64,000 nt of DNA, taken from positions 15,945 through 79,944 of the forward strand of contig WFOA01000010.1 in assembly GCA_015488325.1 (NCBI GenBank), written 5' to 3'. Each line of letters starts with the position of its first letter. Position 1 is the first letter of the stretch. The notes beneath the pieces were generated by a model. It had not been told where the DNA came from. It did no database searches and was given only the letters and a program-made list of their open reading frames with translations. Made by a program: the position numbers and the translations under genes. This document shows, one piece after another, positions 41,041 to 52,247 of this stretch. The stretch is from Acidimicrobiia bacterium. GTDB taxonomy: Bacteria; Actinomycetota; Acidimicrobiia; Spongiisociales; ZC4RG35.

Positions 41041-41109
41041 GGCCCCCGAGACTAATGATTGCTCCGGAAACGGCCGATACTGGAGGGGATCCACGAGAGG
41101 GGAACGACC

Positions 41110-42201
41110 GTGAAGACCCGCCTGCGCATCCTGGCAGCCGTGTTCGCCCTGACCGCGGCAGCGTGCGGCGGTGGCACACCCGCCGCCACCGACCCGGCCG
41201 CCCCGGCCGACGACACCACCTCCCCACCTGCGTCGGGGCCCCAGATCGCGCCGGCGTCGTTCCAGTACCACTACGACGACGTCGTCGAATACGCGTTGAC
41301 CCTCGACCAGACCCTGACGATGCGCGCCGACGGCGACGCCTCGGGTTTCGGCGACGGCCGGTACGAGCTGCCCGTCGAGATGGAAGCCGATGTGCGGGCG
41401 GACCTGACGCTGCGCTACGAGACGAGTCCCGGTCCCGACCCGGGCACCACCACCGTCCGCCTCACCTCCGAGGTGACGAACCTGGTCGTCGAAGGGACGA
41501 TCAACGGCGAGCCGGCGGCCGACACCGACATGGCCCAGCTCGGGCCGACCACCCTGCCACCGGTGGACGTCACCGTCATCGTGGACGAACGGGGCAACGT
41601 GGTGGAGATCGAGAGCTCCGGCGAAGATCTCGGAGCCCTCTTCGGCGGGCTCGGGAGCCTCGAGAACCTCGGCACCTCCCGGCTCGGCCGCCCCGTCGGC
41701 CCGGCCTTCCCCGAAGAGCCGGTGGGGGTGGGCGACACCTGGACGGAGACCACCGAGACGGAAGGCCCCGAAGGGCCCATCGTCACCCGGGCCACCCACA
41801 CCGTCGTCGGCACCGACGTCGTCGCCGGGCGGGACGTGCTCGTCGTCGAGAGCGTCTACGAGACCGACGGGTTCTCGTTCGACTTCACCGACTTCCTCCG
41901 AGGGTTCCTCGAAGGCTTCAGCGACGCCGCCGGCGAGGCCGGGGCACCCGACGAGGGGGAGCTCCAAGACATGCTCGAACAGCTCGTGTTCCGCATCGAC
42001 GTGGCGCCGACGACCAGCACCGTGACCTCCTGGTTCGATCCCGAACGGGGCCTCGTCGTCGAGGCCGACGGCAACGACGACACCGGAATGGCGATGCAGT
42101 TCCAGGGCCCCAACGAGGAGACGGGGGCGATGGAACGCCTCGACGTGGACATGTCGATCACCCAGTCGGTCTCCTACCGCCTCCTCGGCCCGGGCGCCTG
42201 A
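41110..42201 (+). CDS. Lipoprotein of unknown function
   Basis: From GTG 41110: VKTRLRILAAVFALTAAACGGG is a signal peptide with a lipobox Cys. The mature part is acidic and shows no recognised domain. Confidence 0.7.
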   Translation: MKTRLRILAAVFALTAAACGGGTPAATDPAAPADDTTSPPASGPQIAPASFQYHYDDVVEYALTLDQTLTMRADGDASGFGDGRYELPVEMEADVRADLTLRYETSPGPDPGTTTVRLTSEVTNLVVEGTINGEPAADTDMAQLGPTTLPPVDVTVIVDERGNVVEIESSGEDLGALFGGLGSLENLGTSRLGRPVGPAFPEEPVGVGDTWTETTETEGPEGPIVTRATHTVVGTDVVAGRDVLVVESVYETDGFSFDFTDFLRGFLEGFSDAAGEAGAPDEGELQDMLEQLVFRIDVAPTTSTVTSWFDPERGLVVEADGNDDTGMAMQFQGPNEETGAMERLDVDMSITQSVSYRLLGPGA

Positions 42202-42275: not shown

Positions 42276-43037
42276 GTGCGCACCGAGACCCCCCTCCTCC
42301 AGATCGAGAACCTCCACGCCGGGGTCGATGACGTCGAGATCCTCAAGGGCGTCGATCTCACGGTCGAACGCGGCCGCATCCACGTGCTGATGGGTCCCAA
42401 CGGCTCCGGCAAGTCCACCCTCGCCAACGTCCTCATGGGTCACCCCTCCTACGAGGTGACCGAAGGTCGCATCCTCTTCGACGGCGACGACGTCACCGAG
42501 ATGGCCCCGGACGAACGGGCACGGCGCGGCATGTTCCTCGCCTTCCAATACCCCGAAGCCATCCCCGGGGTCTCGGTGATCCAGTTCCTGCGCCAAGCCC
42601 TCTCCAACCGCCACGGCATCGACTACACGGTGCTGGAGCTGCGGCTCAAGGTGATGGACGCGATGAGAGAGCTGGGGATGGACTCCAGCTTCGCCGACCG
42701 CTACCTCAACGAGGGATTCAGCGGCGGTGAGCGGAAACGCAACGAGGTCCTGCAGATGGCGATCCTCGAGCCGACCCTCGCCATCTTGGACGAGACCGAC
42801 TCCGGTCTCGACATCGACGCCCTCAAGACCGTCGCCGAGGGGATCGACAAGCTCCGCCACCCGGACCGTGGTTTCCTCATCATCACCCACTACCAGCGGC
42901 TGTTGGACTACGTCACCCCCGACGACGTCCACGTCTTCATGGACGGCCGGGTCGTCGAGACCGGCGGCCCCGAGCTGGCGAAGCGACTCGAAGAGGAAGG
43001 GTACGAGGCCTTCCGCCGAACCGAGGTCCCCTCATGA
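42276..43037 (+). CDS. sufC: Fe-S cluster assembly ATPase SufC (copy 1)
   Basis: LQIENLHAGV...[44 protein letters not shown]...NEGFSGGERKRNEVLQM...[14 protein letters not shown] is canonical SufC. Confidence 0.95.
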   Translation: MRTETPLLQIENLHAGVDDVEILKGVDLTVERGRIHVLMGPNGSGKSTLANVLMGHPSYEVTEGRILFDGDDVTEMAPDERARRGMFLAFQYPEAIPGVSVIQFLRQALSNRHGIDYTVLELRLKVMDAMRELGMDSSFADRYLNEGFSGGERKRNEVLQMAILEPTLAILDETDSGLDIDALKTVAEGIDKLRHPDRGFLIITHYQRLLDYVTPDDVHVFMDGRVVETGGPELAKRLEEEGYEAFRRTEVPS

Positions 43038-44263
43038 GCGGTCTCGAGCACCTCCGGGCAGATTTCCCGGTGCTCCAACGGGAGATCGGGGGCAAGCCGG
43101 TGCATTTCCTCGACTCCGCCGCCAGCTCCCAGAAGCCGACGAGCGTCCTGGAAGCGATGGACGACTTCTACCGGTGCTGTTACGCCAACGTCCACCGGGG
43201 GGCGTACGCCCTGTCGGTGGAGTCGACCGAACGGTACGAGGCGGCCCGGAGCAGGGTCGCCTCGTTCATCAACGCCTCCGATCCGACCCAGGTGGCCTTC
43301 GCCCGAGGTGCCACCAGTGCGCTGAACCTCATCGCCCACGGCTGGGGTGGCGAACACCTCCGCCCCGGTGATCGGGTGCTGCTCACCGAGATGGAACACC
43401 ACGCCAACCTGGTGCCTTGGCAGATGGTCGCCGCCCGTACGGGAGCCCGCCTCGATTTCGTCCCCCTCACCGACGACTACCGGCTCGACCTGGAGGCGTT
43501 GGAGCAGAAGCTGGACGACGACGTGGCCGTCGTCGGCGTGACCGGGATGTCGAACGTCCTCGGCACCATCCCCCCGATCCCCCGGATCGCCGAGGCGGCC
43601 CGGACCGTCGGTGCTCTCCTGGTCGTGGACGGAGCCCAGCTCGTACCCCACCAACCCGTCGACGTCCAGACCCTCGGAGCCGACTTCCTCGTCTTCTCGG
43701 CCCACAAGATGCTGGGTCCGACCGGCATCGGGGCCCTGTGGGGTCGCCCCGAACGTCTCGAGGAGATGGAACCCTACGAAGGGGGCGGGGAGATGATCGC
43801 CGACGTCCAGCTCCACACCTCGACCTGGGCGGCGATCCCCCACCGTTTCGAGGCGGGGACACCGCCGATCGCCGAAGCCGTTGGTTTCGCCGCCGCGGTC
43901 GACTACCTCGACAAGGTGGGGATGGACCAGGTCGCCGCCCACGACGCCGACCTCACCGCCTACGCCCTCCAGCTCCTCGCCGAGATCCCCCACGTCACCG
44001 TGTACGGACCCGCCGACGTCGACGCCCGGGGAGGGGTGATCTCCTTCACGATGGCGGACGTCCACCCCCACGACCTGGCCACGATCCTCGACCAGCAGGG
44101 CGTGTCGGTGCGGGCGGGACATCACTGTGCCAAGCCCCTGATGCGCCGTCTCTGCGTGCCCGCCACCGCCCGGGCCTCCTTCTACGTGTACAACACCCGG
44201 ACCGACGTGGACGCCCTGGTCGAGGCCCTGGGGGTCGCATCTCGGATCTTCGGGGTCGGGTGA
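43034..44263 (+). CDS. sufS: Cysteine desulfurase SufS (group II)
   Basis: FLDSAASSQKP...ANVHRG.Y.LS...FSAHKMLGPTGIG...RAGHHCAKPL. Confidence 0.95.
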   Translation: MSGLEHLRADFPVLQREIGGKPVHFLDSAASSQKPTSVLEAMDDFYRCCYANVHRGAYALSVESTERYEAARSRVASFINASDPTQVAFARGATSALNLIAHGWGGEHLRPGDRVLLTEMEHHANLVPWQMVAARTGARLDFVPLTDDYRLDLEALEQKLDDDVAVVGVTGMSNVLGTIPPIPRIAEAARTVGALLVVDGAQLVPHQPVDVQTLGADFLVFSAHKMLGPTGIGALWGRPERLEEMEPYEGGGEMIADVQLHTSTWAAIPHRFEAGTPPIAEAVGFAAAVDYLDKVGMDQVAAHDADLTAYALQLLAEIPHVTVYGPADVDARGGVISFTMADVHPHDLATILDQQGVSVRAGHHCAKPLMRRLCVPATARASFYVYNTRTDVDALVEALGVASRIFGVG

Positions 44264-44274
44264 GGGAGGCGGAG

Positions 44275-44730
44275 ATGTCACTCGAAGAGCTGTATCGAGA
44301 GGTCATCCTCGACCACTACCGCAACCCGCGTCATCGCAAACCCCTCGACCGGGCCGACGCCCACGCCGAAGGCGTCAACCCGCTGTGCGGCGACGAGGTG
44401 ACGGTCGAACTCGCCGTCACCGACGGGAGGATCAGCGACGTCGCCGCCATCGGCCAGGGATGTTCGATCAGCCAGTCCTCGGCTTCGATGATGACCGACG
44501 CGATCCTCGGCAAGACCGTCGAAGAGGTGCGGGACCTCATCCAACGGTTCAAGGCCATGATGGACATCGACCACGAAGCCGACCTGGGTCTCGACCCGGA
44601 TCGTCCGGGGGCGGTGTTGGGGGACCTGGAAGCCCTCCAGGGCGTGCGCCGCTACCCGGTCCGGATCAAGTGCGCCAACCTCCCCTGGACCACCCTCGCC
44701 CAGGCTCTCGACCAGCTCTCCGCCTCTTAG
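44275..44730 (+). CDS. sufU: SufU/IscU-like Fe-S scaffold / sulfur acceptor
   Basis: LYREVILDHYRNPRH...NPLCGDEV...GQGCSISQSSASMMT...VRIKCANLPW is a SufU signature with three Cys ligands. Confidence 0.9.
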   Translation: MSLEELYREVILDHYRNPRHRKPLDRADAHAEGVNPLCGDEVTVELAVTDGRISDVAAIGQGCSISQSSASMMTDAILGKTVEEVRDLIQRFKAMMDIDHEADLGLDPDRPGAVLGDLEALQGVRRYPVRIKCANLPWTTLAQALDQLSAS

Positions 44731-44816
44731 GCTCTTCTTGACCTCCTGCTGATGCGCCCCTGAGTCGCATCCCGGCACGATGTCCACAGAACCGAGGGAT
44801 CAGTAGGAGGTCTCAC

Positions 44817-45692
44817 ATGGAACGAAAGATCTGGACCACGGCGGCGGCGCTCACCGTCGTTCTCGCCGTGACCGGCGTCGCCTGGGCAGGGCTGCCCCGC
44901 GCCGCCGAGACGAGCACCACCGTGACCGTGGAGAACGAGCTGGTGGCCCCGGCAGCCGACGCCGGCACCGTCACCCTCCGGAAAGTCGCCGCCGGCCTCG
45001 AGGTCGTGTCGGTGAGCCCGGCCGACGGCTGGGAGTACACCGTGAAACGTGCCGCCGGCCGGGAGGTCGAAGTCGACTTCCGAGCGATGGACGGGACGGT
45101 CGAGTTCGAGGCCGAGATCGACAACGGCCAGGTTCGCATCAAGGTGAAGGTCCGCGTGGACGCCGGTGCCTCCTCCACGACGACCGTCGATTCCACGTCC
45201 TCGACGGTGGACAGCACCTCCACCTCGGTGGCCGCCGGCCCCTCCACCACCGAGGCGGTGACGTCGACCACCATCGACGACAGCCCGTCCACCACGGTCG
45301 ACGATACGTCGCCGACCACCATCGACGACGACCGCACCACCTCGACCACGGTGTACGACGACGACGATGACGACGACCACACCACCTCGACCACGGTGTA
45401 CGACGACGATGACGACGACCGCACCACCTCGACCACGGTGGCGCAGGGCGATCCGGCCGACTTCGGCACCAAGGTCTACGACGTCGACGGCATCGGCACC
45501 GTCACCGTGGAACGGGACGCCGACGGCCTGACCCTCATCGCCGTCGTCTCCAACCCCGACTGGACGATCAACGTCGAGAAGGCCGGTCCGAAAGAGATCG
45601 AGATCGAGTTCAGGAACGGAGAGCTCGAGGTCAAGTTCGAAGCCGAGCTCGAGTACGGGGAGCTCCGGATCAAGATCGAGCGGGGTTCCTGA
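44817..45692 (+). CDS. Secreted protein with two copies of an uncharacterised ~65-aa beta-rich domain separated by a Ser/Thr/Asp-rich linker
   Basis: AGGAGG RBS. Signal peptide MERKIWTTAAALTVVLAVTGVAWA. Domain copies GTVTLRKVAAGLEVVSVSPADGWEYTVKRAAGREVEVDFRA..GTVEFEAEI and GTVTVERDADGLTLIAVVSNPDWTINVEKAGPKEIEIEFRNGELEVKFEAEL. Confidence 0.8.
   Translation: MERKIWTTAAALTVVLAVTGVAWAGLPRAAETSTTVTVENELVAPAADAGTVTLRKVAAGLEVVSVSPADGWEYTVKRAAGREVEVDFRAMDGTVEFEAEIDNGQVRIKVKVRVDAGASSTTTVDSTSSTVDSTSTSVAAGPSTTEAVTSTTIDDSPSTTVDDTSPTTIDDDRTTSTTVYDDDDDDDHTTSTTVYDDDDDDRTTSTTVAQGDPADFGTKVYDVDGIGTVTVERDADGLTLIAVVSNPDWTINVEKAGPKEIEIEFRNGELEVKFEAELEYGELRIKIERGS
45336..45440 (+). repeat. Imperfect tandem coding repeat (45/42-nt units) encoding TTSTTVYDDDDDD
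   Basis: accacctcgaccacggtgtacgacgacgac... occurs at 45336, 45381 and 45423 (the last copy partial). Confidence 0.7.
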
Positions 45693-45696
45693 CCGG

Positions 45697-46974
45697 TCAA
45701 TCCTTCCCGAACACCACCCGGAGAACCGCCCCGCCCTCGGGGCGGTTCTCCGCGTCGAGGTGGCCGCCCGTCCGCGCGGCGGTACGGGCCACGATGTCGA
45801 GTCCGAGACCCGTCGACCCGGCCCCGCTCTCCCCCCGGCGCAGGGGATCGACCCCGTCGGGGAACCCGGGTCCCTCATCGGCGACTTCCAGGACGGCACC
45901 ACCGGCGCCTCTATCGACCTTCACCGTGAACCCGGTCCCCGGAGGGGTGTGGGCGAAGACGTTGCCGACGAGGGCGTCGACGGCGGCTGCGACGTCGCCC
46001 GGAGGGAGCGGCACCGGCGTGGGATCGTCGGTGATCTTCACCTCCAGGGCGCGGTCCTGGTCTTCGGCGGCGACCGCCCAGAAGGCGATCCGGTCTCGGA
46101 CCACCGTCCCCAGATCGCAGGAGGCGGGCCGGTCGTCGGGCCTGGACCGGGCCTCTTCGATGAGCAGGTCGACTTGGCGCTGGAGGCGATCGAGCTGGGC
46201 GAGGAGGGACTCCCGCTCGGGGGATGCTTCGAGCCGCTCGACGCGCAAGCGGAGGGCGGTGAGGGGGGTGCGAAGTCGATGGGAGAGGTCGGCGACCGAT
46301 TCCCGCTCGGCGGCGAGGAGGTCGTCCAACCGCCGTGCGAGCCAGTTGAACGACCGGGCGACCTCCTCGATCTCGACCGGACCTTCCAGGGGAACCCGAA
46401 CCTGCAGATCGCCGGCTCCGAGACGGCGGGCGGCCGTCGCCAGGCGAGTGACGGGACGAACGAGGGACGTTCCCAGTCGGTCGGCCACCAGGACGGCAGC
46501 GACGATCATCCCCAACCCGAGCAGCGCCAAGAACACCCAGGCGGTGGCCACACCCGACCGCAACTGGTCGTCGGTGACGAAGGCCGTGACCACGATCGGG
46601 CCTTCCCGGGTCACCACCGGGAGCGCCACCTGCCAGCCCCCGTCGACCTCGTCGGCCACCGCACGTTGCTCATCGGCGGCGAGGCGGGTCACCGCGCTGG
46701 GCAGGGCGGACCCGATCAACCCTCCGTCGGGGAGGATGACGCTCACTCCGGGAGGTAGGGGCCCGAGGAGGTCGGCGAGGACGTCGACGTCGAGGCGGTC
46801 CACCTGGGCGAGGGCGAGGGCGACGAGGCTCCCCACCTCCTGAATGTCCCGTTCAGCGGCGACCCGGGCTCGGGTCTCCGCCTGGTGGCGGACCAACAGG
46901 GCCAGGGGCACGGTGAAGGCGATGACGACCAGGGACGTCACGGCGGCGGAGACGAGGACGAATCGGCGTCTCAC
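45697..46974 (-). CDS. Sensor histidine kinase (two TM segments, HAMP, HisKA, HATPase_c)
   Basis: GTG 46974 (GTGA overlap with the RR stop). H-box ADLSHRLRTPLTAL. G-boxes DEGPGF and GSTGLGL. Confidence 0.9.
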   Translation of the reverse strand: MRRRFVLVSAAVTSLVVIAFTVPLALLVRHQAETRARVAAERDIQEVGSLVALALAQVDRLDVDVLADLLGPLPPGVSVILPDGGLIGSALPSAVTRLAADEQRAVADEVDGGWQVALPVVTREGPIVVTAFVTDDQLRSGVATAWVFLALLGLGMIVAAVLVADRLGTSLVRPVTRLATAARRLGAGDLQVRVPLEGPVEIEEVARSFNWLARRLDDLLAAERESVADLSHRLRTPLTALRLRVERLEASPERESLLAQLDRLQRQVDLLIEEARSRPDDRPASCDLGTVVRDRIAFWAVAAEDQDRALEVKITDDPTPVPLPPGDVAAAVDALVGNVFAHTPPGTGFTVKVDRGAGGAVLEVADEGPGFPDGVDPLRRGESGAGSTGLGLDIVARTAARTGGHLDAENRPEGGAVLRVVFGKD

Positions 46975-47654
46975 GATTCGGGTTCGACCAGCTTCACCCC
47001 CACACCGTGAACGGTCCGCAGGTAGCGGGGCTGCTGCGCAGACTCGCCCAGTTTCTTGCGAAGCCACGACAGGTGCACGTCGACGGACCGCTCACTGCCG
47101 CCGTACGGCTCCCGCCAGACTTCGGCCATCAGCTCCCGCTTCGACACCACTTCGCCTGCACGTTCCGCCAGCACCCGCAACAGGTCGAACTCCTTGGGAC
47201 TGAGGTCCAGGGGTTCACCGTCGAGGGAGGCTTCCCGGGAGGACGGGTCCACCACCAGGCCGCCGATGACGATGGGTCCGTCCCGCCGACCCGACTCGGC
47301 CCGGCGAAGCACCGCCCGCACCCTCGCCTCGAGCTGGGCCACCGAGAAGGGCTTCACGAGGTAGTCGTCGGCGCCGGCGTCGAGGGTACGGACCACCGAC
47401 TCGTCCCCTTCCCGGGCGGTGATGACCACGACGGGCACCTGCGACACCGCTCGGATCATCCGGAGCAGCTCCGAGCCGTCGAGGTCGGGCAGGCCCAGGT
47501 CGAGGATCACCAGATCGGGCGACGATCCGACGACCTGGCGGAGACCCTCCATGGCGGTGGCCGCCGATTCGACGTCGTGACCCTGGCGGGCCAGCGTCTC
47601 GGCGACCAGGTGCCTGATCTCGAAGTCGTCCTCGACGACGATCACACGGGACAT
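46971..47654 (-). CDS. OmpR/PhoB-family response regulator
   Basis: MSRVIVVEDD...DLVILDLGLPDLDG (receiver domain). C-terminal winged helix ...VDVHLSWLRKKL...YLRTVHGVGVKL. Confidence 0.95.
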   Translation of the reverse strand: MSRVIVVEDDFEIRHLVAETLARQGHDVESAATAMEGLRQVVGSSPDLVILDLGLPDLDGSELLRMIRAVSQVPVVVITAREGDESVVRTLDAGADDYLVKPFSVAQLEARVRAVLRRAESGRRDGPIVIGGLVVDPSSREASLDGEPLDLSPKEFDLLRVLAERAGEVVSKRELMAEVWREPYGGSERSVDVHLSWLRKKLGESAQQPRYLRTVHGVGVKLVEPES

Positions 47655-47693
47655 CGGCCCCGAGCATATCGGCCGTGCCACCCCGGAGATCGG

Positions 47694-47723
47694 ACCTTGA
47701 CGAAACCTTGACTACCCCTTGAC
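47694..47723. promoter_or_regulatory. Three direct repeats (ACCTTGAC, ACCTTGAC, CCCTTGAC) with exact 11-bp phasing; candidate OmpR-family RR binding array
   Basis: Repeats start at 47694, 47705 and 47716. They sit in the 103-nt divergent region between the RR gene (start 47654) and the secreted-protein gene (start 47758). Confidence 0.6.
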
Positions 47724-47757
47724 TTCCGAGTGCGCGGATCTCGGGGAGAATGACGGT

Positions 47758-48405
47758 ATGCGCCGGCTCGTACTCGTCGTCGCCTGGATGGGCGCCACCG
47801 TGATCGTCACCGCCACCGCCTGGGCGGTGGTCTCCGCGGTGGAGGACCGGGTCAGCGACCGGCCCCTCACCCCCCTCATCGCCACCACCTTGGCGGTCGA
47901 CGAGACCACGACCACCACCTTGCCTCCGGTGACGGACCCGTCGGCCGAGACCCCGCCGCCGGCGACCGGCGACGAACCGACCACGACCACGGTCGGAGCC
48001 GAGACCGACGACACGGTGGCCTCGACGGGAAACACCGGAGGGGGCACCGTCCCCACCACCGCCGCCCCGACCACCACCACGACCTTGGTGACCACCACGA
48101 CGACCGTCCCGACCACCACCACGACCGTCGCGACCACCACGACCACCTCGACGGAGCCCTCCGGCGAGTGGCAGACGAAGACGATCGTGACGCCGGGAGG
48201 CAGCCTCACCATCAAGCACCGCCCCGACGAAGTCGTCTTGACGTCGACGACTCCGGCCGCCGGCTTCGTGGTCGAGATCAAAAACGCCGGTCCACCCGAA
48301 GTGGATGTCGAGTTCGAGACGAACGACGACACCGTCAAGATCGACGTGCGGGTCCGCTACGAGAACGGCGTCCTCATCGAAGACATCGAAGAGGAGCGAA
48401 GCTGA
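47758..48405 (+). CDS. Secreted/membrane-anchored Thr-rich protein with one copy of the same ~65-aa domain as 44817..45692
   Basis: MRRLVLVVAWMGATVIVTATAWAVV is a signal or anchor. Poly-Thr linker (TTTTTLVTTTTTVPTTTTTVATTTTTS). C-terminal GGSLTIKHRPDEVVLTSTTPAAGFVVEIKNAGPPEVDVEFETNDDTVKIDVRV. Confidence 0.75.
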   Translation: MRRLVLVVAWMGATVIVTATAWAVVSAVEDRVSDRPLTPLIATTLAVDETTTTTLPPVTDPSAETPPPATGDEPTTTTVGAETDDTVASTGNTGGGTVPTTAAPTTTTTLVTTTTTVPTTTTTVATTTTTSTEPSGEWQTKTIVTPGGSLTIKHRPDEVVLTSTTPAAGFVVEIKNAGPPEVDVEFETNDDTVKIDVRVRYENGVLIEDIEEERS

Positions 48406-48408
48406 ACC

Positions 48409-49800
48409 TCAGAGGATGCCACCCTCGGTCATCTTCTTGATGTCGAGGGCGGCGTCGACCTCTTCGGCGCTCATCAGCCCCTTCTCGAGGACCACCTCCC
48501 GCACGGTCCGCCCGCTGGCGAATGCCTCTTTCGCCACGGCGGCTCCGGCGTCGTAGCCGATGTGGGGGTTGAGGGCCGTTACCACGATGACGTTTTTCTC
48601 GACGAGTTCACGGGCCCGTTCTTCGTTCGCCTCGATCCCGGTGACACACTTCTCGGCCAGCACCCGCGACGCGTTGCCGAGGATCGTGATCGCCTGCAAC
48701 AGGTTGTGGGCGATCAACGGCATCATCACGTTGAGCTCGAAGTTGCCGTTGGCTCCCCCCCAGGTGATGGCGGCGTCGTTGCCCATCACCTGCGCCGCCA
48801 CCATCATCACCGCCTCGGGGATGACCGGGTTCACCTTGGCGGGCATGATCGACGAGCCGGGTTGGAGTGCCGGAAGCCGGATCTCGCCGATCCCGGTGAC
48901 CGGACCGCTCGACAGCCAGCGGAGGTCGTTGGCGATCTTGAACAGTGACGTGGCGACGGTCTTGAGGGTGCCGGCCGCCTGCACCGTGGCGTCCTTCGCC
49001 GCCTGCGCCTCGAAGTGGTTCGTGGCTTCCCGGAACGGGATCCCGGTCCGCTCGGAGATGACGTCGATCACCTTCGCGGCGAAGCCTTCCGGACAGTTGA
49101 TCCCGGTCCCTACGGCGGTTCCCCCGAGGGGGAGCTCCTCGAGTTCGGGGAGGACCTTCTCGACCCGTTCGATCCCCTTGCGGACCTGGGTGGCGTAGCC
49201 GGAGAACTCCTGGCCGAGGGTGACCGGCGTGGCGTCCATGAGGTGGGTCCGTCCCGACTTCACGACCCGTTCGAACTCCCGGGACTTCTCCTCCAAGGCG
49301 AGGGCCAGCGCCGACAGTCCCGGGATCAGCACTTCCCGCACCTCGGCGGCGGCGGCGACGTGGATCGCCGTGGGGATCACGTCGTTCGACGACTGACCGA
49401 AGTTGACGTGGTCGTTGGGATGTACGAGTTTGGACCCCAGGGCTCCACCCAGGACCTGCGAAGCGCGGTTGGCGATCACCTCGTTGGCGTTGGTGTTCGT
49501 CGACGTCCCCGATCCGGTCTGGAAGATGTCGACCGGGAAGTGCTCGTCGAAGTCGCCCCTCGCCACTTCGGCGGCGGCCTGCTCGATCGCCTTCGCCTTC
49601 TCGGCGTCGACGTACCCTTCGGGTCCTGCGACGGCGGCCACCGCCCCTTTGATGACGCCGAGGGCCCAGATGAACCGACGGGGGAAACGGATCCCCGAGA
49701 TCGGGAAGTTCTCGATCGCCCGTTGCGTCGAAGCTCCGTAGAGGGCGTCGGCCGGGACCCGGACCTCGCCCATCGAGTCTCTCTCGGTGCGGTACTCCAC
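48409..49800 (-). CDS. fumC: Class II fumarate hydratase
   Basis: [11 protein letters not shown] signature. [19 protein letters not shown]. 463 aa. GTG start with GAAGGAG RBS. Confidence 0.95.
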
Positions 49801-49873
49801 GATGGTGCTCCTTCGTCGACAGCTCCAGCGTACGCCCCGGCCGCCCCGGCCGCGACCGCTGAAAGTCCATCCG

Positions 49874-50674
49874 TCAGAAGTCGAAGGGAGTGTCGGTGAA
49901 GAAGTCCGACGGCCGGCGTTCCGACGGGGTGGGTTCGGGCTGGAGACCGAGACGCTCCCGCAGGCCTTCGTATCCTTCTGCCTCCAGCTCGTCGGCCAGC
50001 TCGGGTCCTCCCGAACACACGATCCTGCCGTCCATCATCACGTGGATCCGGTCGGCCCGCAGGTAGCGGAGGATGCGGGAGTAGTGGGTGATGAGCAGCA
50101 CCCCGAGGTCGGGGCCTCGCATCTCCTCCACGGCGGCCGCCACCTCCCGGACGGCGTCGATGTCGAGTCCGGAGTCGATCTCGTCGAGCAGCGCCGCCTT
50201 CGGACGGAGTACGGCCATCTGGAGGATCTCGGAACGCTTCTTCTCCCCGCCGGAGAGGTCGTCGTTGACCGACCGGTCCAAGAATTCGGTGGCGCCGAGG
50301 CGTTCGGCGAGCTCCCGGGCCCGGGTCAGTGTCGCCTCCGGGTCGGCTCCCCACTCTTCCGCCGCCTCTCGGAGCAGCTCGGACAGTTTCACCCCGGGGA
50401 TCTCCACGGGATACTGGAAGGCCTGCAGGAGCCCCAACCGGGCCCGCTCGTCCACCTCGAGGCCCAACACCTCCGTCCCGTCGAGGAGGGCGGATCCCGA
50501 GACCTCGTAGCCGTCTTTTCCGGTGAGCACATGACAGAGGGTCGACTTGCCCGAACCGTTCGGGCCCATCACGGCGTGGACCTCGCCGAAACCGATGTCG
50601 AGGTCCACGCCACGCAGGATCTCGACGGAACCAACCGAGGCGTGGAGGTCGCGGATCTGGAGGGCGAGGCTCAT
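49874..50674 (-). CDS. sufC: Fe-S cluster assembly ATPase SufC (copy 2, with ~20-aa C-terminal extension)
   Basis: From ATG 50674 (ATGA overlap with the Rieske stop): [10 protein letters not shown]...ILRGVDL....[17 protein letters not shown]...[16 protein letters not shown]...[13 protein letters not shown]. Confidence 0.9.
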
Positions 50675-50985
50675 GACGGCTCCACGGACAGGTAGACGTC
50701 GCCGTCTTCCACCTTCACCCGGTAGGTGGGCACCGGCCGGGTCGCCGGAAGGGTGAGGGGTTTGCCCGTCTTGAGGTCGAAGACGGCGCCATGGCGGGGA
50801 CATTCGATCTCGTGGTCCACGACCTCTCCTTCGGCGAGGGACGCCTCGGCGTGACTGCATCGATCACCGAGGGCGTAGACGTCGTCTCCGACCCGGACGA
50901 GGGCGATCCGGTGCCCGGGAAGGTCGACCCGCACCGGGGCGCCCGGGACCAGATCGTCCATCGACGTCACCTTCACCCAGCTCAT
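50671..50985 (-). CDS. Rieske [2Fe-2S] ferredoxin-like protein embedded in the suf operon
   Basis: CSHAEASL...CPRHGAVF (CxH...CxxH). 104 aa. ATGA overlaps on both sides. Confidence 0.9.
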   Translation of the reverse strand: MSWVKVTSMDDLVPGAPVRVDLPGHRIALVRVGDDVYALGDRCSHAEASLAEGEVVDHEIECPRHGAVFDLKTGKPLTLPATRPVPTYRVKVEDGDVYLSVEPS

Positions 50986-52247
50986 CCCAACCTCCCTGCG
51001 GCCTGAGCGGCACCGAACCGTTCGTCCACTTCCCGCCGGAGCGGATCGGCCATGGCGTCCGACGGGAGGCGTTCGATGACCTCTTCGAAGAACCCGTGCA
51101 CCAGGAGGCGTTCGGCCCGGTCACGGGAGAGACCCCGGCTCATCAGGTAGTACAGATGTTCGGCGTCGAGGGGCCCGACGCTGGAGCCGTGCCCGCAGAC
51201 CACGTCGTCACAGAGGATCTCGAGGTTGGGGACCGAATGGGCCTTCGCCCCGTCGGAGAGGACCAGGTTGCGGTTGGTCTCGAACGCCGATGTGCGGGCG
51301 GCGGTGGGAGCGATCCGCAACAGACCGGTGAACACCGACTGGGCGTGATCTTCCACCGCGCCTTTGAGGAGGACGTCGGAGCTGGTGGAGCGGCCCACGT
51401 GGTCGATCACCATCCGGTAGTCGAGGACCTGGGTGCCTTCACCGAAGTACAACCCGACGACCTCGGCGGAGCTACCGTCGCCTTCGAGGCGCACCCCGAG
51501 GTCGAGCCGGGCCGTCGACCCCCCGAGGCCCGCCTCCCCGACCCGCAGGGTGGCGTCCCGGGCGAGTCGAGCCCGCTCGTGGGCGACGAGGACGGTGGCG
51601 TCGCCGAGGAGCTGGACGGTGGTGAACCGCAGCCGGGCCCCCTGGGCGACGTCGAGTCCGAGCAGCGGAGCGACGACGGCGTCGACGCCGTCGGGGCTGC
51701 GGTAGACGACCACCACGTTCGCCTCGGCGTTCTCACCGACCTCCACCGTCACTTCCGGGAACGAGATCGTGCCGCCGGCGGTGGCTTGGAGTTCGACCAC
51801 CACCGGACGGACCTCGACCGCACCGGCCGGGACGCCGACGAACACCCCGTCGCCGCCGAAGGCGAACCCGGCGGCGGCGAACTTGTCCACCGAGGGGTCG
51901 ACGAGGGATGGGACCGCTCCCCGCTCCCACCGTTCCGCCCCCCGGCCGATTCGCACGGTGTCCCCACCGTCCACCGACACCGTGTACCCGTCCACGACCA
52001 CGACCCGGCCGGCAGCGTCGCCGATCGCCGACACGAAGGGGCCGGGCTTCAGCGGTTGTCCGGGTTCTTCGGGGAGGGCGAGGGTGTCGAAGTCGACGTC
52101 GAGGTCGACGTATCTCCAGGCCTCGTCGGTGTCGGACGGAGGGGGGATCTCGCGGTAGAGGTCGAAGGCTTCGAGTCGCCGCCGAGCGAGGGGCTCGGGG
52201 GCGTCGCGATTCAGGACCTCGACGGTCGTGGCGTTCAGGGCGAGCAC
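50982..52247 (-). CDS. sufD: Fe-S cluster assembly protein SufD
   Basis: 421 aa with beta-helix-type repeats. The C-terminal ...NLEILCDDVVCGHGSSVGPLDAEHLYYLMSRGLSRDRAERLLVHGF is a SufD/SufB family signature. Confidence 0.9.
   Translation of the reverse strand: MLALNATTVEVLNRDAPEPLARRRLEAFDLYREIPPPSDTDEAWRYVDLDVDFDTLALPEEPGQPLKPGPFVSAIGDAAGRVVVVDGYTVSVDGGDTVRIGRGAERWERGAVPSLVDPSVDKFAAAGFAFGGDGVFVGVPAGAVEVRPVVVELQATAGGTISFPEVTVEVGENAEANVVVVYRSPDGVDAVVAPLLGLDVAQGARLRFTTVQLLGDATVLVAHERARLARDATLRVGEAGLGGSTARLDLGVRLEGDGSSAEVVGLYFGEGTQVLDYRMVIDHVGRSTSSDVLLKGAVEDHAQSVFTGLLRIAPTAARTSAFETNRNLVLSDGAKAHSVPNLEILCDDVVCGHGSSVGPLDAEHLYYLMSRGLSRDRAERLLVHGFFEEVIERLPSDAMADPLRREVDERFGAAQAAGRLG

Follow-up and report, generated by a model that had tools for sequence, protein, structure and literature searches.

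The 64,000-nucleotide stretch of contig WFOA01000010.1 (assembly GCA_015488325.1) from an Acidimicrobiia bacterium, hereafter the window, contains four adjacent genes that encode a sensor kinase (HK), a response regulator (RR) and two exported proteins, A and B, in which a domain of about 70 amino acids (aa) occurs three times. These four genes, referred to here as the cassette, are the subject of the present analysis. Gene A is an open reading frame (ORF) of 291 aa at 44817-45692 on the plus strand, and converges on the 3' end of the HK gene. Gene B (47758-48405, plus strand, 215 aa) diverges from the RR gene (46971-47654, 227 aa). Both HK and RR lie on the minus strand, where the ORF of HK extends over 45697-47067. 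The real start of HK is most likely the GTG at 46974, which gives a gene of 45697-46974 and a product of 425 aa, because every HK orthologue (n=31) has the N-terminus VRR(R/W)L at that codon and the GTG overlaps the stop codon of RR as GTGA (46971-46974). The public gene call for HK is likewise 425 aa long.

RR is an OmpR/PhoB-family response regulator composed of a receiver domain (Pfam Response_reg, PF00072; E-value 1e-27, 96.8 bits against a cut-off of 30.2) and a C-terminal winged helix (Trans_reg_C, PF00486; 3e-25, 88.7 bits against a cut-off of 26.2). Its score was under the cut-off of every named NCBIfam equivalog. HK is a class I (HisKA) transmembrane sensor kinase, in which the HAMP (4e-14, 53 bits), HisKA (4e-8, 33.8 bits) and HATPase_c (8e-12, 46 bits) domains all exceed their Pfam cut-offs. 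Hydropathy peaks place the two transmembrane (TM) segments at about residues 5-27 (TM1) and 142-166 (TM2), with an extracytoplasmic loop of about 114 aa (residues 28-141) between them. The loop is 110-118 aa long and acidic, with a net charge of -3 to -13, in every one of the 31 orthologues, and no His, Met or Cys is conserved in it across this set. The mean identity among the orthologues is 32% in the loop and 46% in the cytoplasmic core, and reaches 55% in TM1, the most conserved segment of the protein.

A first-pass annotation of this DNA, made from the sequence alone, had placed the kinase and regulator pair between secreted proteins with Ser/Thr-rich and acidic linkers. Export and such linkers are confirmed for the proteins on either side of the pair. 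A begins with a signal peptide (44817-44888, plus strand) with a predicted cleavage after AWA (AWA/G), which is followed on the same strand by domain 1 (44949-45161), a disordered Ser/Thr/Asp linker (45162-45473) and domain 2 (45474-45689). A basic and then hydrophobic Sec signal ending in AWA, ANA or GSA is present in 31 of 31 orthologues of A, and the protein is probably released from the cell. B opens with a TM helix and a juxtamembrane motif (about 47761-47880, plus strand), continues as a Thr/Pro-rich stalk to about 48186, and ends with its single domain (48187-48402). In the B orthologues the hydrophobic helix contains a conserved Trp and is followed by the conserved motif V..D.P....P, and no AXA cleavage site was found among them. 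The probable topology of B is that of a type II membrane protein whose domain is kept at a distance from the membrane.

The linker of A comprises 101 aa, of which 46% are Ser/Thr and 25% Asp/Glu, and the stalk of B about 115-119 aa, with 41% Ser/Thr and 11% Pro. Among the B orthologues, the Ser/Thr/Pro stalk that precedes the domain measures 73-139 aa, mostly 92-139. Both segments are encoded by tandem DNA repeats (45262-45440 in A, 48053-48152 in B). The repeat of the A linker (45324-45440) has a period of 42 nt, 2.7 copies and 93% matching positions, and that of the B stalk a period of 21 or 42 nt.

The shared beta domain and its predicted fold

The three copies of the domain are clearly related in pairwise BLASTP alignments, with E-values of 4e-16 between the two domains of A (39% identity), 7e-9 between domain 2 of A and the domain of B, and 7e-8 between domain 1 of A and that of B. 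The first-pass annotation had recognised the same arrangement of two copies in A and one in B, and the envelopes of a hidden Markov model (HMM; 44949-45161 and 45474-45683 in A, 48187-48402 in B) fall within about 20 nt of the positions it proposed. A six-frame hmmsearch of the window returned no copy beyond these three, the next match having an E-value of 2.4.

When 1.84 billion cluster representatives (clusters at 50% identity) were searched exhaustively with a profile, 1,591 proteins reached E<=1e-3, of which 303 also reached E<=1e-10. The majority of the family members are 200-300 aa long and carry two copies of the domain. A word-indexed homologue search was far less productive: the three-copy profile gave a single match, and a profile of 122 sequences retrieved 27 short unnamed proteins. 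All members checked that carry a name in their source are called "hypothetical protein", with the exception of a "Calx-beta" protein from Lyngbya aestuarii (P0015, 2177 aa). The latter aligns only to profile positions 16-51 through many weak repeats, and we regard it as a likely spurious match; the Pfam Calx-beta model itself has no match in the domain family. P0064 (2830 aa, 17 matched stretches) was treated in the same manner, as a probable sum of weak resemblances. These two proteins owe their high scores to 13-17 partial matches each.

The domain had initially been left without a named family, and our searches lead to the same result. When 122 diverse domain sequences were compared singly with Pfam and NCBIfam, no family was matched by more than 2 of the 122 at E<=0.01. 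Ten full-length homologues gave no consistent match to either collection, and full-length A and B had no Pfam match at E<=1. By these comparisons the domain falls outside PepSY, YycH, YycI, CpxP/LTXXQ, Calx-beta, DUF1775 and every other Pfam-A or NCBIfam family. The closest candidate, amphi-Trp (TIGR04354), resembles the domain in its similar length, its amphipathic alternation and a conserved Trp, and was rejected: protein A matches it with an E-value of 6.5e-4 and 20 bits against a cut-off of 31 bits, and 1 of the 122 domains reaches E<=0.01. The domain is thus a real and widespread family that matches no Pfam or NCBIfam model. It comprises no fewer than 1,591 clusters at 50% identity, has a confident predicted fold and could be added to these databases now.

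Three subtypes can be told apart by HMM, namely A1 (domain 1 of A), A2 (domain 2 of A) and B, although the boundary between B and A2 is not always sharp. In 17 of 150 representatives a single polypeptide combines domains of the A and B types, which suggests that the two types work together.

AlphaFold2 predicted the structure of domain 1 from the 122-sequence alignment with a predicted local distance difference test (pLDDT) score of 97.8 and a predicted template modelling (pTM) score of 0.86. The model is a six-stranded antiparallel beta-meander, along whose strands (EVEVDF, VEFEAEI, VRIKVKVRV) residues alternate strictly between a face of Val/Ile/Phe/Trp and a face of Glu/Asp/Arg/Lys. Among the outward residues of the A1 subtype, E40, E42 and E57 are invariant, and R64, R66 and R70 nearly so. 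The domain has no conserved His, Cys or Met. In the model of full-length A both domains have a pLDDT above 90, and the linker falls below 50, with residues 125-200 disordered. A lone amphipathic sheet of this kind would have to bury its hydrophobic face, either by pairing with another copy of the domain or by contact with a hydrophobic binding partner.

A search of the PDB by sequence yielded noise only (best E-value 0.14), and a search by fold revealed no significant solved neighbour. The secreted protein Zea of Listeria monocytogenes (Lmo2686; PDB code 4K15) is an intriguing parallel: it forms a toroidal hexamer of an otherwise unknown fold class, and its operon is controlled by the CesRK envelope-stress system (PMC6907008, PMC6686043). 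The structural evidence is too weak for a claim of homology.

Conservation of the cassette and candidate regulator boxes

A scan with a degenerate pattern over one genome per GTDB species recovered 39 loci that contain the domain, nearly all of them in metagenome-assembled genomes of Acidimicrobiia. Close homologues of HK and RR accompany the domain genes in 30 of the 39. All 30 have a two-domain gene next to the 3' end of HK and, wherever the contig is long enough, a gene with one domain that diverges from RR. The pair is missing in 4 fully flanked loci, and the remaining loci are cut by contig ends. In a second sample, for which another subgroup served as seed, five short metagenome contigs were obtained, three with a full or nearly full cassette and one more with an adjacent RR. 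A divergent member with four domains (P0004) is also located directly downstream of an OmpR-type RR-HK pair. The first-pass annotation had named two outcomes that would speak against its reading, a well-known family with an unrelated function and a lack of conserved linkage to two-component systems, and the data agree with neither of them.

The orientation of gene A is variable. It converges on HK in 17 loci, as in the window, and follows HK co-directionally in 13, and it always adjoins HK; L022 and L034 have a two-domain gene on the far side of B. The cassette has therefore undergone rearrangements without being broken. The pairwise distances of the A1, A2, B, RR and HK parts are all correlated (r 0.6-0.9), and the cassette thus evolved as a unit. 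The suf and fumC genes that flank it in the window are common to only about 10 of the 30 cassettes, and no other flanking family recurs. A functional tie to the suf/fumC genes as a general feature was rejected because the flanks differ in about 20 other cassettes. Taken together, these observations are strong evidence for a conserved linkage between the domain genes and the two-component system that goes well past shared synteny.

The intergenic region between RR and B contains three perfect copies of CCTTGAC, at 47695, 47706 and 47717, which are spaced by 11 bp and form a predicted RR box (47694-47722, plus strand). Tandem Repeats Finder detected the same array independently, with a period of 11 and 2.8 copies. 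The window contains the exact triple TTGAC-N6 pattern a single time, against 0.5 occurrences expected by chance with 3 mismatches allowed. An expectation-maximisation motif search of the equivalent region in 31 loci converged on gaCTTGAGGtTTtCCTAACcTTcCgtTGA. A position weight matrix (PWM) trained only on these RR/B regions was then applied to both strands of the whole window and gave two sites of at least 13 bits, the training site and a second one at 44724-44752, which scores 18.9 bits and lies directly upstream of A in the same orientation. This second box (44724-44764, plus strand) consists of three repeats phased at 11 bp within 44724-44752, CTCTTAGGCTCTTCTTGACCTCCTGCTGA, and a probable fourth repeat, CCCTGAG, recognised by alignment. 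Across the loci, 12 sites of at least 15 bits were found in 12.8 kb of sequence upstream of A (11 of 30 loci) versus 2 in about 1 Mb elsewhere, a more than 300-fold enrichment.

The boxes stand at a fixed distance from candidate promoter elements. Upstream of B, the order in 23 of 23 loci is the box, 22-24 nt, a hexamer of the form nAnnnT (such as GATAAT, GATAGT or GAGAAT), 6-7 nt and an ATG or GTG start codon. In the window the corresponding -10-like hexamer is GAGAAT (47746-47751, plus strand), 23 nt past the box and 6 nt ahead of the ATG. This geometry sets the start codon of B at 47758 and implies, as read from the sequence, a leaderless mRNA. Upstream of A, about 23 nt separate the box from an nAnnnT hexamer, beyond which lies a leader of about 30 nt with AGGAGG. 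In the window, the putative -10 hexamer is CACGAT (44776-44781, plus strand), 23 nt past the box, and the Shine-Dalgarno sequence AGGAGG (44805-44810, plus strand) precedes the ATG by 6 nt. The spacing between box and hexamer is the same in ten other loci, and AAGGAG or AGGAGG occurs at the same position in the A orthologues. On the opposite strand, a TAnnnT hexamer stands 6-8 nt ahead of the RR ATG in 23 of 23 loci (TATGCT at 47663-47668 on the minus strand of the window, 8 nt ahead of the start codon), which implies that the RR-HK transcript would be leaderless as well. The predicted transcripts would accordingly begin at 47758 for B, at 47654 for RR-HK and near 44788 for A. The distance of this hexamer from the box varies, being mostly 22-25, 35-36, 46 or 57-58 nt, and 5 nt in one locus. 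A scan for consensus promoters and terminators provided nothing useful, and an Rfam scan of 44000-49000 detected no RNA family.

Phased direct repeats are the classic arrangement for binding by dimers and oligomers of OmpR/PhoB-family regulators. The placement of the box in the position of a -35 element, at a fixed distance from the -10 hexamer, would correspond to the layout of PhoB-type activation. The sequence features expected of an RR regulon are present, namely direct repeats in a fixed promoter-proximal position that are conserved across species, which makes genes A and B probable targets of transcriptional control by RR. In the RR/B regions of L015, L018, L029, L037 and L039 the repeat unit has changed from TTGAC/CTAAC to TTAGC/TTATC with the phasing of about 11 bp retained, a pattern suggestive of co-evolution between the box and the recognition helix of RR.

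The proximity of the four genes could in principle reflect an inherited gene order in one clade, with repeats that have no function and with A and B as ordinary surface proteins. Almost all of the loci come from a single class, Acidimicrobiia, and the co-divergence of all parts is what vertical inheritance would produce. The flanks, however, differ in about two-thirds of the loci where the four genes remain together, and A has been inverted in place, or moved to the side of B in L022 and L034, and is still part of the cassette. The enrichment of the boxes upstream of A and their constant 23 nt from the -10 hexamers likewise do not fit repeats devoid of function. We consider this explanation very improbable.

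A proposed signalling circuit and its known counterparts

We regard it as moderately likely that the four genes constitute a self-contained envelope-signalling cassette and regulon, conserved mainly in Acidimicrobiia, of which A and B would be the exported outputs. In the proposed circuit, the membrane-bound HK, with its two TM segments, acidic loop of about 114 aa and cytoplasmic HAMP-HisKA-HATPase_c region, would sense an extracytoplasmic cue and phosphorylate RR. Phosphorylated RR would bind the arrays of 3-4 direct repeats at 11 bp, which occupy the -35 position 23 nt upstream of the -10 hexamers of the A and B promoters. RR would thereby drive the expression of A and B and probably influence its own operon. 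The array ahead of B also separates this gene from the divergent, predicted leaderless operon of RR and HK. The products would be a secreted A, with two domains on a disordered Ser/Thr/Asp linker, and an anchored B, with one domain on a Thr/Pro-rich stalk. The hydrophobic face of the domains could be buried by their pairing, either of A with B or within A. Finally, A and B may feed back on HK in the manner of CpxP or YycH/YycI. Such feedback is plausible because the TM helix of B is conserved, TM1 of HK is conserved and the adjacency of the genes is obligatory.

Several points weigh against this interpretation. It is built on sequence and structure prediction, and all of the organisms are uncultured. 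Binding of the boxes by this particular RR is deduced from their position, the type of repeat and co-conservation. The box is diverged and scores poorly with the PWM in L015, L018, L029, L037 and L039, and A has no box of its own in 8 of the co-directional loci. The domain is not obligatorily tied to a kinase, because members without an adjacent OmpR-type pair exist in L006, L027, L031, L032/L052 and L053, and probably in L041-L043. In the mirror-tree comparison all parts co-diverge, and the partial correlations, in which the HK loop is only slightly above the core, are too weak as evidence of contact.

The kind of system is known, in that two-component pairs with adjacent exported partner or target proteins have been described, and it is the domain and this arrangement that are new. 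The gene cpxP of Escherichia coli encodes a small exported protein and is divergent from cpxRA, and the region between them holds direct-repeat sites for the regulator. CpxP serves the Cpx pathway as an output and also regulates it by negative feedback (PMC10602906). By analogy, we consider this envelope-stress system the nearest functional counterpart of the cassette, which shares with it an exported protein divergent from the RR-HK genes and direct-repeat sites between them. The proteins themselves differ: CpxP belongs to the alpha-helical LTXXQ proteins and resides in the Gram-negative periplasm, whereas A and B are two beta-meander proteins with long Ser/Thr stalks in a monoderm actinobacterial lineage, and no relationship of sequence or fold between CpxP and A or B was found.

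The proteins YycH and YycI of Bacillota share a fold with each other. They are two extracytoplasmic accessory proteins encoded beside the gene of the WalK kinase, which they regulate (PMC7355866, PMC5013275). Both are anchored by a TM helix, are co-transcribed downstream of walK and belong to Pfam families without a match in A or B. Unlike this pair, A is secreted, B diverges from RR, and both genes have predicted regulator boxes. Closer in phylogeny, the actinobacterial LpqB-MtrAB and CseA-CseBC systems also combine an OmpR-type two-component system with an adjacent exported partner, and in 13 loci A is directly downstream of HK, as lpqB is of mtrB. LpqB and CseA, in contrast, are lipoproteins of unrelated families. 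The loose analogy to LpqB with MtrAB that had been drawn in the first-pass annotation therefore stands for the gene neighbourhood and fails for orthology. The NCBIfam scores are far under the cut-offs for MtrA (180.2 against 300) and MtrB (67.2 against 450), and neither A nor B matches an LpqB model. Orthology to the SigE-linked CseABC system was rejected on the same grounds (CseB 181.5 against 350, CseC 39.4 against 700).

These precedents bear on a different view of A and B, namely that they are primarily co-sensors or accessory subunits, the beta domains or the TM helix of B contacting HK to set its activity or to present a ligand, with control by RR being secondary. CpxP, as effector and feedback regulator (PMC10602906), and YycH/YycI with WalK (PMC7355866, PMC5013275) demonstrate that such proteins exist. 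The adjacency of A survives its inversion, the TM helix and juxtamembrane motif of B are conserved, and TM1 is the segment of HK that has changed least. The partial distance correlations with the two domains of A are also somewhat stronger for the loop of HK (0.29, 0.55) than for its core (0.07, 0.34). This mirror-tree signal is nevertheless weak and confounded by shared ancestry, members of the family occur without a neighbouring kinase, and the HK loop and the domains are all acidic, which disfavours a simple electrostatic docking. A primary role as co-sensors is a possibility that we hold tentatively, and it is compatible with control of A and B by RR.

A bolder version joins A, B and the acidic loop of HK into a three-protein extracytoplasmic sensing device that would be specific to Acidimicrobiia and relatives. 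The stalked B would capture the secreted A with their hydrophobic sheets face to face, the amount or state of the complex would inform HK about the envelope, or about a ligand of hydrophobic or cationic nature bound to the complex, and HK would in turn set the synthesis of A and B. The A1-B fusions and the correlation between A1 and B distances would then be traces of A-B pairing. We think this device unlikely; if real, it would represent a new structural class of kinase co-sensor drawn from a new fold family.

If A and B do modulate HK, whatever their primary role, the beta-meander would be a third structural solution to the extracytoplasmic control of kinases, beside CpxP and YycH/YycI. The Acidimicrobiia, which abound in soils, waters and activated sludge, are almost entirely uncultured, and we know of essentially no characterised signalling systems in this class. 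The cassette is a compact predicted circuit of a kinase, a regulator, a putative binding site, two promoters and two outputs, which could be rebuilt in a heterologous actinobacterium.

Copper-related neighbours and other observations around the cassette

A few loci raise the question of whether the domain handles metal outside the cytoplasm, be it copper or a divalent cation such as Ca2+ or Mn2+, and whether the cassette is devoted to metal homeostasis. In L005 (11611-13712), a box of 24.3 bits is followed by 23 nt, the hexamer GAAAAT and a multi-cupredoxin ORF of 652 aa that adjoins the cassette. The member P0020 (L049) is 176 bp from a divergent cupredoxin gene whose product is homologous to the L005 protein (E-value 3e-79), and P0011 (L052/L032) is immediately preceded by copC and a copC-copD-cytochrome c gene. 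A GDT1 gene, found near P0020, also adjoins P0006 (L043). Two of ten long members showed matches to DUF1775 (YcnI copper-binding; E-value about 3e-4), and one face of the domain exposes conserved Glu residues. The DUF1775 matches, with 21-22 bits, are nevertheless under the Pfam threshold of 25. Copper-related neighbours occur in only 3 of about 45 loci, and none lie within 10 kb of the cassette in the window or of the other cassettes. Neither the domain nor the HK loop has a conserved His, Cys or Met. Membership in the heavy-metal systems CopRS/CusRS/CzcRS was rejected on the absence of conserved metal-ligand residues in the loop and on the NCBIfam scores of HK (69.1 against 292, TIGR01386) and RR (154.6 against 279, TIGR01387); direct sensing of copper by HK is likewise not supported by the composition of the loop. 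We consider a metal-handling role improbable, and the link to copper a weak minority hypothesis.

The 652-aa ORF of L005 contains about five cupredoxin-like repeats (H...C..HPEM), poly-Pro linkers and a C-terminal TM anchor; judged from the box ahead of it, it may be an extra member of the regulon in that organism. The neighbours of P0020 in L049 comprise two pairs of extracytoplasmic function (ECF) sigma and anti-sigma factors, DsbA, the GDT1 gene and a NarL-type two-component system. In L052, P0011 precedes an ECF sigma gene.

In the window, the cassette is located within a split region for SUF Fe-S assembly, which covers 42276-44730 on the plus strand and 48409-52247 on the minus strand. 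The genes sufC-sufS-sufU are found on one side, and fumC (class II fumarase), a second sufC, a Rieske protein gene and sufD on the other, in the opposite strand. Upstream of sufC, an ORF of 380 aa (41059-42201, plus strand) has a lipoprotein-like N-terminus (LTAAACGGG); it belongs to no Pfam family, with a match to DUF6263 only at an E-value of 0.08, and is annotated publicly as a gene of 363 aa. No site of at least 13 bits is present upstream of sufC in the window. In one locus, L017, a box of 20.2 bits (13337, minus strand) stands upstream of the sufC-sufS-sufU operon.

The window matches a public scaffold (ENA metagenome REYS20-1, scaffold_159; L001) in which gene A is called as its C-terminal 99 aa only (P0001), because a run of N interrupts the repetitive linker. 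Gene A corresponds there to L001 9248-10300, and the poly-Asp run of its linker differs between the window and the L001 assembly (6 versus 7 Asp), which suggests that the length of the linkers varies rapidly. Just upstream of P0001, the opposite strand is annotated with an ORF of 169 aa (L001 9319-9828, minus strand), whose position corresponds, by approximate mapping, to the 5' half of gene A.

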